Source of the DNA: Escherichia coli
GTDB taxonomy: Bacteria > Pseudomonadota > Gammaproteobacteria > Enterobacterales > Enterobacteriaceae
Length of the DNA stretch: 64,000 nt
Strand: one strand, 5' to 3'
Assembly: GCF_003334785.1 (NCBI RefSeq)
Contig: NZ_QOWV01000006.1
Shown here: positions 9,674 through 13,439 of the stretch, in pieces
How positions within the stretch are numbered: the first letter of the stretch is position 1
Layout of the letters: every line of letters starts with the position of its first letter
Translations under genes and position numbers: made by a program
Notes under the pieces: model-generated
Database searches by the model: none
The model's input: the letters and a program-made list of their open reading frames with translations, nothing else
What the model was told of the DNA's origin: nothing

Positions 9674-10957
9674 TTAGCCTTTAGCTGTTGCATTTTGTTT
9701 ATGAAACAGTTCACGGAACACCGGATAAATATCATCCTGGTCGCGGATGTGCTGCATCGCAAAGTTGTCGAAAGTAGATTGCAGATGCTCATATTCTCGC
9801 CACAATGTCTGATGTGCACGACGGGTAATTTCGATATAGCTGTAATAACGAACAACAGGTAATAATTTTTTCGCCAGGATTTCATGGCAAAGCGGAGAGT
9901 CATCGGCCCAGTTATCGCCGTCCGATGCTTGTGCAGCGTAAATATTCCACTGTGCCGGGTTATAACGCTCTTTCACTACCTCATCCATCAGTTTCAGGGC
10001 GCTGGAAACAATGGTGCCGCCTGTTTCCTGCGAGTAGAAAAACTCATGTTCATCGACTTCTTTCGCCTGGGTATGATGGCGGATGTATACGACTTCCACG
10101 TTCTTATACGTTCTGCTGAGGAACAGATACAGCAGAATATAAAAACGCTTAGCCATATCTTTAGTGGATTGATCCATTGAACCGGAAACGTCCATCAGGC
10201 AAAACATCACTGCCTGGCTGGAGGGATCGGGCCGCTTCTCGTAGTTCTTGTAACGTAAATCGAAGGTGTCAATAAAAGGGACGCGTTCAATTTTGGCACG
10301 TAATTCTGCAATTTCTTTGCGCAGACGTTCCTCTTCCAGCAGTTGCGCAGGTTCACTGTTGCTGATGATGGCCAAATTCTCTTCCAGTGCATGAAGTTCC
10401 CGCCGCTTGCCTGCCGTCATGGCTGTGCGTCGCGCCAGTGAGTTCTGCAATGAACGCACAACGCTGATATTGGCCGGAACGCCGTTAGCGGTATAACCCG
10501 CCCGATGCGTTTTATATTCGGTCAGCTGGCGTTGTTGGTTTTGTTTCAGATTCGGTAAGGCCAAATCTTCAAAGAGCAGATCAAGATACTCATCTTTCGA
10601 AATCTGAAAGACAAATTCATCCTGACCTTCACCATCCTGGCTGGCCTGGCCCTGACCACTGCCGGAACCTCCGCCGCCACCCTGGGGACGTTCAATTCGG
10701 TCGTTCTGGACGAAATGGTCATTGCCCGGATGCACGCGGTGGCGCAGACCGCCACGCCCCTGATGAAACATCGGTTCGCTAATATCTTCCGTGGGAATGG
10801 ATACGGATTCGCCGCTGTCGACGTCAGTCACCGAACGCTTATTAATGGCCTCGGAGATCGACTGTTTAATTTGCGCTTTATAACGGCGTAAAAAACGCTG
10901 GCGATTCACCATGCTTTTGTTTTTGCCGTTCAGACGCCGGTCAATAAACCAGGTCAT
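9674..10957 (-). CDS. yeaH: YeaH, DUF444 protein, 427 aa
   Basis: Track ORF; directly downstream of yeaG. Confidence 0.85.
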
Positions 10958-11069
10958 ATGCCCCCCGTACTACATTTGCCAACTGTATGCTACGCCTGTG
11001 TTGCCGCTTCTCAGGCCCACGGTTCGCTGTCGTTGTAGGCCCGGTAACATGTGTACCGGGCCAGGGTTG

Positions 11070-13004
11070 TTAAGACGATTTACGTACGCGCAAATACCAT
11101 TCGCACAGTAAACGCACCTGTTTACGGGTGTAGCCTTTTTCCATCATACGGTCGACAAAGTCGTCGTGTTTCTTCTGCTCGTCGGTTGACGTTTTGGCGT
11201 TAAACGAGATAACCGGCAACAGCTCCTCGGTATTGGAGAACATTTTCTTCTCGATGACCGTGCGCAGTTTTTCATAGCTGGTCCAGTTCGGATTGCGTCC
11301 GCTGTTATTCGCTCTGGCGCGCAGTACGAAGTTAACAATCTCGTTGCGGAAATCTTTTGGATTACTGATCCCCGCCGGTTTCTCGATTTTCTCCAGCTCG
11401 GCGTTAAGAGACTCGCGGTCAAACAGCTGCCCGGTATCCGGATCGCGATACTCCTGATCCTGAATCCAGAAATCCGCGTAGGTAACATAACGGTCGAAAA
11501 TGTTTTGCCCATATTCGGAATAGGATTCAAGGTAGGCCGTCTGGATCTCTTTGCCGATAAACTCGGCATATTTCGGGATCAGATAACCTTTCAGGAACTC
11601 CAGATAGCGTTCTGCCTGCTCTTGTGGGAACTGCTCGCGCTCAATCTGCTGTTCCAGGACGTAGAACAGATGGACCGGGTTTGCTGCCACTTCTACATGA
11701 TCGAAGTTGAACACGCGGGAGAGGATCTTAAACGCAAAACGCGTCGACAGACCGTTCATCCCTTCATCGACACCGGCGTAGTCACGATATTCCTGATACG
11801 ACTTGGCTTTGGGATCGGTGTCTTTCAGACTTTCGCCATCATAAACCCGCATCTTTGAATAAATGCTGGAGTTTTCTGGCTCTTTCAGGCGCGAAAGAAT
11901 GGAAAAACGTGACAGTGTTTCGAGCGTGCCAGGGGCGCATGGGGCGTGAGTCAATTCACTGTGATTAAGCAATTTCTCGTAGATTTTGATCTCTTCGGAA
12001 ATGCGCAAGCAATACGGCACCTTCACGATGTAAACACGATCGAGGAAGGCTTCGTTGTTTTTGTTATTACGGAAAGTGACCCATTCGGACTCGTTCGAGT
12101 GTGCGAGAATAATCCCGTTGAACGGCAGGGCGGAGATACCTTCCGTCCCGTTGTAGTTACCTTCCTGAGTGGCGGTTAACAAGGGATGCAGCACTTTAAT
12201 CGGTGCTTTAAACATCTCAACGAATTCCATGATCCCCTGATTGGCGCGGCACAGCGCACCGGAATAGCCGTAGGCGTCCGGGTCATTCTGCGCGTAGTGT
12301 TCGAGTTTACGAATATCGACTTTCCCAACCAGCGCGGAGATGTCCTGGTTGTTCTCATCGCCGGGTTCCGTTTTGGCGATAGCAATTTGTTGCAGAATTG
12401 ACGGCCAGACCTTCACTACCCGGAACTTAGTGATATCGCCACCAAATTCATGCAGGCGTTTTGCCGCCCACGGCGACATGATGGTGCCGAGATAACGGCG
12501 AGGAATGCCATACTCTTTTTCCAGAATCTGCGCATCTTCCTGCGGATTGAAAAGACAGAACGGATGATCGTTGACCGGGCTACGCTCACCGTTCGCGCTC
12601 AATACATAAATCGGTACGAGCTGCATTAATGATTTCAGTCGCTCAGCAAGCGATGATTTACCCCCACCCACAGGCCCCAGCAGATACAGGATTTGTTTCT
12701 TCTCTTCCAGCCCCTGAGCCGCGTGTTTCAGATAAGAGACAATCTGTTCAATCGCGTCTTCCATGCCGTAAAACTCTTCAAACGCCGGATAACGTGCAAT
12801 GACCCGGTTAGAAAAGAGTCGAGAAAGTCTGGGTTCCTGGGCTGTATCGACCATGACAGGCTCACCGATAGCCATCAATAGCCGCTCAGCCGCGTTGGCA
12901 TAAGCACTGCGATCTTGCCGACAAGTGGTAAGAAACTCCTGCAGTGTGAACTCTTCGTCCTTGGCAGCTTCATATCGCTGGCGATAGTGATCGAATATAT
13001 TCAT
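11070..13004 (-). CDS. yeaG: PrkA-family serine protein kinase YeaG, 644 aa
   Basis: Track ORF; Walker A GPVGGGKSS near N-terminus. Confidence 0.9.
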   Translation of the reverse strand: MNIFDHYRQRYEAAKDEEFTLQEFLTTCRQDRSAYANAAERLLMAIGEPVMVDTAQEPRLSRLFSNRVIARYPAFEEFYGMEDAIEQIVSYLKHAAQGLEEKKQILYLLGPVGGGKSSLAERLKSLMQLVPIYVLSANGERSPVNDHPFCLFNPQEDAQILEKEYGIPRRYLGTIMSPWAAKRLHEFGGDITKFRVVKVWPSILQQIAIAKTEPGDENNQDISALVGKVDIRKLEHYAQNDPDAYGYSGALCRANQGIMEFVEMFKAPIKVLHPLLTATQEGNYNGTEGISALPFNGIILAHSNESEWVTFRNNKNNEAFLDRVYIVKVPYCLRISEEIKIYEKLLNHSELTHAPCAPGTLETLSRFSILSRLKEPENSSIYSKMRVYDGESLKDTDPKAKSYQEYRDYAGVDEGMNGLSTRFAFKILSRVFNFDHVEVAANPVHLFYVLEQQIEREQFPQEQAERYLEFLKGYLIPKYAEFIGKEIQTAYLESYSEYGQNIFDRYVTYADFWIQDQEYRDPDTGQLFDRESLNAELEKIEKPAGISNPKDFRNEIVNFVLRARANNSGRNPNWTSYEKLRTVIEKKMFSNTEELLPVISFNAKTSTDEQKKHDDFVDRMMEKGYTRKQVRLLCEWYLRVRKSS

Positions 13005-13439
13005 GGTATGCCGTCCTTTCGTTTTTTAGCACAGGTTAAGAGCCGTTCATATGAATAGTAGAGGCTCCCGGAAGAGGTAAACTGAACGACGTCTCTTGCT
13101 AAAACACAGCAACTCTCATGCCATTTTATCGACGATGAGAACAACGTGCCCGGTGATACACCTTCAAAATTAAGCGTAGATGGCAAATGGAAAACTTGCC
13201 TGCACGGCTTTCTTAATTTCAATGGCATATCAACAACTCATCCATAAATTTTGCATAATTAATGTAAAGACCAGGCTCGCCAGTAACGCTAAATTCATTT
13301 GGCTGTAAGCGCGGTGTCATCCGCGTCAGGAAAATTAAACAGTTACTTTAAAAAATGAAAACGTAAAAAGGTTGGGTTTCGATGTATTGACGGGTAAACT
13401 TTGTCGCCCGCTAAACATTTGTTTAAGGAATGATTAATT

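Follow-up and report, generated by a model that had tools for sequence, protein, structure and literature searches.

The control region analysed here, that of the yeaG-yeaH (yeaGH) operon of Escherichia coli, has its closest described counterparts in two NtrC-activated systems, glnAp2 and astCADBE, and the two genes themselves belong to the prkA-yhbH-spoVR module. At glnA, the natural NtrC boxes are located at about -110 and -140, and the NtrC enhancer is still active when it is moved more than 1 kb away from glnAp2. The astCADBE operon is a nitrogen-starvation operon with an NtrC-activated σ54 promoter, and astC expression is also σS-dependent. The module is represented by prkA and yhbH in Bacillus and by yeaG, yeaH and ycgB in E. 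coli, with the same pair of AAA_PrkA plus PrkA and DUF444 proteins. In the stretch of E. coli chromosome studied here (64,000 nt, referred to as the window), yeaG occupies positions 11070..13004 and yeaH positions 9674..10957, both on the minus strand. A spacer of 435 nt (13005..13439) separates yeaG from the divergently transcribed mipA (13440..14186, plus strand, GTG start), which encodes an MltA-interacting outer-membrane scaffolding protein. This spacer is 100% identical to that of E. coli chromosomes and was found in 5426 of 5426 complete genomes.

The yeaGH operon, with its σ54/NtrC and σS control and its SdsR-regulated leader, is a characterised and already published operon; σ54 binding, NtrC dependence, RpoS dependence, SdsR repression and PhoB binding are known from the literature. 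A first-pass annotation of the window had proposed complex regulation of yeaGH, which is right but had thus been documented before. Our analysis contributes the exact positions of the motifs and their conservation, and the lack of an NtrC box, a small RNA family and a conserved small open reading frame (ORF) in the spacer. Taken as a whole, the region very probably represents the yeaGH operon and its control region, with tandem promoters for yeaG and a σ70 promoter and a PhoB box for mipA. On a more specific point we are tentative: a cluster of NtrC boxes at 14190-14258, beyond the far end of mipA, might be a long-range enhancer of the yeaG σ54 promoter, acting through a loop that encloses the divergently transcribed mipA, a possibility that we place well short of an even chance.

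The same annotation had been unable to place a convincing σ54 promoter upstream of yeaG. In fact, the minus strand of the spacer carries TGGCATGAGAGTTGCT at 13108..13123, an exact match to the -24/-12 consensus TGGCAYN5TTGCW with GG and GC exactly 10 nt apart, and the sole exact match in the 64 kb. Since shuffling gave 0.33 expected matches per shuffle, with at least one match in 25 of 100 shuffles, the motif is weak evidence when taken alone; its position and its conservation were decisive for accepting it as a promoter. Within our comparative set of 80 loci with close YeaG relatives, it is present in 23 of the 27 Enterobacterales loci that have mipA upstream and missing or decayed in Yersinia, Edwardsiella and one Pseudocitrobacter metagenome-assembled genome; it was not found in the loci outside the Enterobacterales, Vibrionales and Alteromonadales included. 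Relative to the ATG, most Enterobacterales have the motif at -94..-129, and two loci with long spacers have it at -154 and -242. The site coincides with that found by chromatin immunoprecipitation and sequencing (ChIP-seq) of σ54 in E. coli, ATGGCATGAGAGTTGCT, 93 nt from yeaG (PMC4591121), and the same sequence is a σ54 binding site in Salmonella (PMC3844500). With the C of the GC element placed at -12, transcription would start at 13097, giving a leader of 93 nt (13005..13097, minus strand) that agrees with the "93" of PMC4591121 and with the -93 construct of PMC10954441. Furthermore, an NtrC ChIP-seq peak has been reported at yeaGH (PMC4066584), yeaGH induction is NtrC-dependent (PMC4664914), and the operon is described as driven by two adjacent promoters, σ54 and σ38 (review PMC6299236; 2023 paper PMC10954441).

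Activator sites of σ54 promoters usually lie about 80-250 bp upstream, and no such site was found for yeaG when 17-mers were scored against TGCACCAnnnTGGTGCA at 14 positions. The spacer (13005..13439) contains no NtrC box of at least 9/14; its best matches reach 8/14, about four of which are expected by chance, and no positionally conserved NtrC box was found in the spacers of the other species. As a positive control, the same scan recovered both NtrC boxes of astC in the window (47607..47643; starts at 47607 and 47627, 9/14 and 11/14, 20 nt apart); the astC σ54 promoter GGCACGAACCCTGCA (47843..47857, plus strand) follows about 230-250 nt downstream. The two operons are alike in responding to nitrogen starvation from an NtrC-activated σ54 promoter, in the length of their divergent spacers (445 nt for astC, 435 nt for yeaG) and in an NtrC ChIP-seq peak that lies on the promoter (PMC4066584). 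In contrast to astC, which has the boxes in its own spacer, the spacer of yeaG is devoid of them, and the nearest ones lie on the far side of an entire gene, at a distance of about 1.15 kb.

These boxes form a cluster (14190..14258) just past the mipA stop codon and around the mipA terminator, about 1.15 kb upstream of the yeaG σ54 promoter, within the 89 nt that separate the mipA stop from the ATG of yeaE. Box 1 (TGCATCTTTCCAGGGCA, 14190..14206) matches at 9/14 positions. Box 3 (TGCATTACGGTGGTGCA, 14242..14258) directly abuts the terminator hairpin (14221..14242) and is, with 12/14, the best match in the window. The arrangement recurs in other Enterobacterales as an array of box 1, about 6-11 nt past the mipA stop, box 2, the terminator and box 3, the right half of box 2 doubling as the left terminator arm. 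In Serratia, Enterobacter, Dickeya, Rahnella and Pantoea stewartii, the array comprises three boxes of 9-12/14 at spacings of 19-22 and 29-31 nt. The Serratia grimesii array reads TGCACAATATTTGTGCA .. TGCATCATAAAGGGGCG ttaa CGCCCCTTT TGCACATCTGTGGTGCA, with boxes of 12, 10 and 12 of 14. In 27 species, boxes of at least 10/14 are 30-fold denser in the 100 nt past the mipA stop (35 of 2349 positions) than in the remainder of these loci (90 of 180,620; Fisher p = 2e-36). In Serratia, Enterobacter and Dickeya, where the box centres are separated by 22 and 30 nt, the cluster resembles the glnAp2 enhancer in having TGCACCAnnnTGGTGCA-type dyad boxes at intervals of full helical turns. Unlike the glnA boxes, the candidate boxes of yeaG are at about -1150, downstream of a divergent gene and wrapped around its terminator.

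The coding sequence of yeaG itself contains a further NtrC-like box at 12438..12454, about 650 nt downstream of the σ54 start. It reads TGCACGAkTTTGGTGGm over the codons L-H-E-F-G-G, reaches 10/14 in E. coli and, in Enterobacter, Erwinia and Pantoea, 11-12/14, and occupies position 3051 in four other loci (L009, L010, L017, L052). Although recurrent, it probably results from coding constraint on a highly conserved protein.

Two genome-wide studies bear on the cluster, and both connect it with yeaE (14276..15130). Genomic SELEX placed an NtrC peak at 1,863,654 (about 14282 in the window), which was confirmed by gel shift and assigned to yeaE, and quantitative reverse-transcription PCR showed a 3.1-fold increase of yeaE mRNA in nitrogen depletion that depended on rpoN and ntrC (PMC8743547). 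ChIP-exo combined with RNA-seq instead identified yeaE as the sole gene down-regulated by NtrC and implied NtrC binding within 300 bp upstream of it (PMC9853098). The boxes past mipA could accordingly be unrelated to yeaG and regulate yeaE, for example by repressing a σ70 promoter of that gene, while NtrC, being abundant in nitrogen starvation, would activate yeaG from solution or through degenerate spacer sites. This explanation is a serious contender, which we rate only somewhat short of an even chance: besides the assignment in both experimental papers, the end of box 3 is 17 nt away from the yeaE ATG, and some species have the σ54 promoter and lack the boxes (see below). However, the two papers contradict each other on the sign of the yeaE effect, and neither names yeaG in its main text. 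A σ54 promoter for yeaE was also sought in the 89-nt mipA-yeaE spacer and rejected, as there is no GG-N10-GC element and GGGCATTTTGTGCA is wrongly spaced.

The distribution of the boxes among species speaks for yeaG as their target. A cluster score of at least 4 (background probability 0.026) was reached in 14 of 23 species with the yeaG σ54 promoter and in none of the eight species that have mipA but lack this promoter. Ten species are devoid of yeaE; in nine of them the spacer past mipA lies between the convergent genes yeaD and mipA, a position without a nearby promoter that the boxes could act on. The yeaG σ54 promoter occurs in eight of the ten, and five of these eight keep the box cluster with scores of 5-10, the strongest being S. 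grimesii with the array given above. Conversely, Pseudocitrobacter has yeaE, yet both the boxes and a canonical σ54 promoter are absent. Within 2.6 kb of the boxes, no σ54 promoter other than that of yeaG is conserved, and the next σ54-like motif in the window is more than 20 kb away. Both the co-occurrence with the σ54 promoter and the persistence of the boxes in the absence of yeaE lend indirect support to a function as a remote enhancer of yeaG.

Several observations weigh against such an enhancer or leave the scheme around it incomplete. The E. coli cluster has one strong box (12/14), the others being weak (9/14 and 8/14). Salmonella, Citrobacter youngae and Pseudescherichia keep the σ54 promoter without good boxes past mipA; in Salmonella, an extra radical-SAM gene is located between mipA and yeaE. 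Moreover, as the species are related, perhaps three independent losses underlie the co-occurrence of boxes and σ54 promoter. The NtrC ChIP-seq data have their peak on the yeaG σ54 promoter itself (about 13115-13035 in the window), and none is listed at the mipA 3' end (PMC4066584). In the same data set, however, the astC peak is found on the promoter and not on the boxes 230-250 nt upstream, which indicates that these data do not locate enhancers. The σS start used in our scheme is a sequence prediction, and the statement that yeaG has two promoters is taken from reviews and papers rather than from 5'-end mapping. Finally, the spacer contains two conserved blocks (13213-13243 and 13290-13325) without an assigned function.

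Either of these blocks might be the true upstream activating sequence, bound by NtrC in a non-canonical manner or by another enhancer-binding protein. An alignment of 23 Enterobacterales mipA/yeaG spacers (alignment A1) revealed as conserved the mipA -10 element, GATGACA/ATGAC repeats, a block that is palindromic in Serratia, the σS and σ54 promoters and the last approximately 40 nt of the leader. The block palindromic in Serratia, GATGAGTTrTTGATATGyCATTGAAATT (13213..13243, minus strand), is centred at about -133 from the σ54 transcription start, a distance that is classical for an enhancer. Its conservation extends from Escherichia to Dickeya, Serratia and Edwardsiella, and Salmonella has it too; in S. 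grimesii it is a perfect palindrome, AGTCATTGATATGACT, with one mismatch in S. silvae. On the other hand, it bears no resemblance to TGCACCAnnnTGGTGCA, and it is conserved in Edwardsiella, which is devoid of the σ54 promoter. The NtrC genomic SELEX paper never mentions yeaG (PMC8743547). The block is also centred at about -65 from the predicted σS start and might just as well serve that promoter as an activator, IHF-like or Lrp-type site; an Lrp ChIP signal has been found at yeaG. Comparison by eye with the consensus sequences of IHF, Lrp, CRP, FNR, Nac, GlrR and ZraR gave nothing convincing, the resemblance to the IHF core being 8/9. The second block consists of repeated GATGACA, ATGAC and ATGAA motifs (13290..13325, minus strand; columns 170-215 of alignment A1) and is conserved within the Enterobacteriaceae only. 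All in all, we consider such a role of either block unlikely.

Upstream of the σ54 promoter, the minus strand carries a second promoter-like element. KCTAYRCTTAA is the consensus of σS promoters of the Weber/Hengge type, and the extended -10 sequence TCTACGCTTAA (13180..13170; conserved block (d) of alignment A1) matches it at 11 of 11 positions, which was reached in none of 200 shuffles of E. coli-type sequences. A -35-like AGGCAA (13201..13196) precedes it at a spacing of 17 nt, and the -10 element is located about 65 nt upstream of the σ54 promoter. With its exact match, weak -35 and A/T-rich discriminator, the element resembles promoters of this class; unlike them, it has a σ54 closed-complex site at about +43..+58 of its own transcript. 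Transcription from it is predicted to start at about 13165, so that the σ54 promoter would be part of a leader of about 160 nt. σ54 holoenzyme bound at its promoter may therefore act as a roadblock to σS transcripts. In Salmonella, yeaG and its 5' non-coding region are RpoS-dependent, and the roadblock idea is consistent with the activity of a yeaG reporter, which in a Salmonella rpoN mutant was at least as high (PMC3844500).

The σS promoter has a wider distribution than the σ54 promoter. A σS-type -10 sequence (CTAnn[CAT]TT[AT]A) was found at -100..-51 in 27 of 47 loci outside the Enterobacterales, with 0-4 occurrences in each other 50-nt bin, and yeaG of Plesiomonas likewise has one. We read this pattern as an ancestral gammaproteobacterial σS promoter into whose leader the Enterobacterales inserted the σ54 promoter together with a new leader of about 93 nt. 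Such an insertion would account for part of the extra length of the spacer.

The 93-nt leader of the σ54 transcript contains the Shine-Dalgarno (SD) sequence AAGGA (13018..13014, minus strand) and the pairing site CCUGUGCUAA (13035..13026, minus strand) for the small RNA SdsR, which pairs with the yeaG leader at -31..-22 and lowers translation (PMC10954441). The approximately 40 nt next to the yeaG start codon are nearly invariant across the Enterobacterales in the alignment. The consensus fold of the leader (alifold) is weak, with -4.4 kcal/mol and a compensatory change in one of 11 pairs. Pairing of CUGUGCU with the SD sequence is invariant and therefore offers no covariation evidence.

The spacer had been called unusually long. 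This is overstated, as 435 nt is the second longest of the nine spacers between divergent genes within 50 kb around it (86, 96, 160, 169, 182, 235, 341, 435 and 445 nt), the longest being that of astC, likewise an NtrC/σ54 operon. A divergent arrangement of mipA and yeaG with a spacer of about 390-450 nt (maximum 625 nt) is kept across the Enterobacterales, even where MipA identity is down to 45-55%. The spacer looks long because it is fully used by promoters and regulator sites on both sides. In fact, what is found is not a single yeaG start near the ATG with no regulator binding upstream.

A hidden gene for a small RNA or a small protein, which had been suggested for 13005-13439, might also explain the length. 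A 75-aa ORF that overlaps the yeaG start does exist (13228..13001, minus strand), and a hypothetical ORF, STM14_1559, is annotated at the equivalent place in Salmonella 14028. However, RefSeq annotates nothing between mipA and yeaG, and an Rfam scan of 9000-14500 gave no match at E <= 1. In other species the same ATG opens frames of 2-64 aa, in E. albertii of 13 aa; as its length is not conserved, we do not regard this ORF as a gene, and we consider it very improbable that an unannotated gene accounts for the spacer.

On the mipA side, the plus strand contains the PhoB box TTGCATAATTAATGTAAA (13251..13268), which serves mipA. It was established by ChIP-chip, gel shift and reporter assays at -180.5 from mipA and -255.5 from yeaG (PMC3465305); the sequence is present at this position, and the published distances match the window coordinates. 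A TAAACT sequence (conserved as TAnACT; 13395..13400, plus strand) is the probable σ70 -10 element of mipA, with a predicted transcription start at about 13407 and a promoter spanning about 13360-13407. Columns A55, G56, T57, T59 and A60 of alignment A1 are invariant or nearly so there. A consensus scan for σ70 promoters returned five sites with 5.3 expected and was uninformative. Another σ54-like sequence, TGGCACTTGGAGTGCT (13459..13474, plus strand), lies in the signal-peptide codons of mipA and points into the gene with correct GG-N10-GC spacing. It was found in E. coli sequences only (the window and one further locus, L003), the main text of PMC4591121 lists no σ54 ChIP site at this position, and we treated it as a chance match.

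The genes of the operon correspond to the earlier description. The ORF list agrees exactly with the 112-nt gap described between yeaG and yeaH (10958..11069) and with the 435-nt spacer shared with mipA. YeaG (644 aa; ORF list, RefSeq and Pfam) had been called a PrkA-type kinase and YeaH (427 aa; ORF list and RefSeq) a DUF444 protein, and Pfam confirmed both. YeaG contains LLGPVGGGKSSLAERL with the Walker A motif GPVGGGKSS and belongs to the PrkA-family AAA+/Ser-Thr kinases, matching AAA_PrkA (PF08298, 2e-187, full length 1-358) and PrkA (PF06798, 1.7e-70). YeaH matches DUF444 (PF04285, 4.8e-191; YeaH/YhbH family) over model positions 2-418 of 418 and is thus a full-length family member. YeaG of E. 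coli is 82-89% identical to the proteins of Vibrionales, Shewanella, Aeromonas and Alteromonadales-type loci, and yeaH adjoins yeaG in all 79 loci that have a YeaH match. The yeaG call of one Salmonella enterica locus (L084, 3001..5733) is 910 aa long with duplicated AAA_PrkA/PrkA domains, and its ribosome-binding region is altered to GAAAGAATGG in place of GAAAGGACGG; this is probably an assembly or strain artefact.

Two hairpins flank the yeaH gene. On the minus strand of the yeaG-yeaH spacer, a strong hairpin, GGCCCGGT..ACCGGGCC (about 11062..11038), is located directly 3' of the yeaG stop codon and has no T-run. The E. coli spacer folds at -37.9 kcal/mol. Across species this spacer measures 25-202 nt and is a hotspot that carries REP-like and hairpin inserts (loci L002-L042), conservation being limited to the last approximately 35 nt, the ribosome-binding region of yeaH. 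The GC-rich hairpin could set the ratio of YeaG to YeaH by stabilising the mRNA or by attenuation. Five nucleotides past the yeaH stop, a consensus scan identified a terminator-like hairpin (9641..9669, minus strand; 11-pair stem with six GC pairs) with a TTTTTAGCTTA tail, which is probably the end of the yeaGH operon. Further downstream lies the diguanylate-cyclase-like gene cdgI/yeaI (8052..9527, minus strand), an intact ORF of 491 aa in the window that is annotated as frameshifted in the K-12-derived strain ER1709.

In comparison with the prkA-yhbH-spoVR module, ycgB is not adjacent to yeaGH in E. coli, and the Enterobacterales gained the σ54 promoter and the divergent mipA. In Plesiomonas shigelloides (L083, 3001..7806), yeaG and yeaH form an uninterrupted cluster with a SpoVR-family gene (ycgB homologue), immediately after gapA-yeaD and without mipA or yeaE. 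Here the three-gene module is seen in one piece; in E. coli it is split.

We propose that the yeaG control region is built in layers. The distal σS promoter (-10 at 13180-13170, start at about 13165) would be an ancient element common to Vibrio, Shewanella and their relatives, and the proximal σ54 promoter (13123-13108, start at 13097) an addition of the Enterobacterales inside the leader of the σS transcript. We infer the σS start, a possible interference of σ54 with σS transcripts and, with less confidence, the looping of NtrC from the cluster distal to mipA. The last approximately 40 nt of the leader combine the ribosome-binding site with the SdsR site, through which SdsR limits translation late in nitrogen starvation. 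NtrC might be delivered to the σ54 promoter by looping from the cluster past mipA (14190-14258).

Beyond the published regulation of yeaGH, this analysis adds a base-level map of the spacer, the evolutionary layering of its two promoters and the question of where the NtrC enhancer is located. If the cluster past mipA indeed serves yeaG, the NtrC site credited to yeaE in two genome-wide studies would be mis-assigned. It would then represent a rare natural bacterial enhancer of kilobase range that acts across a gene and, in several species, lies between convergent genes.

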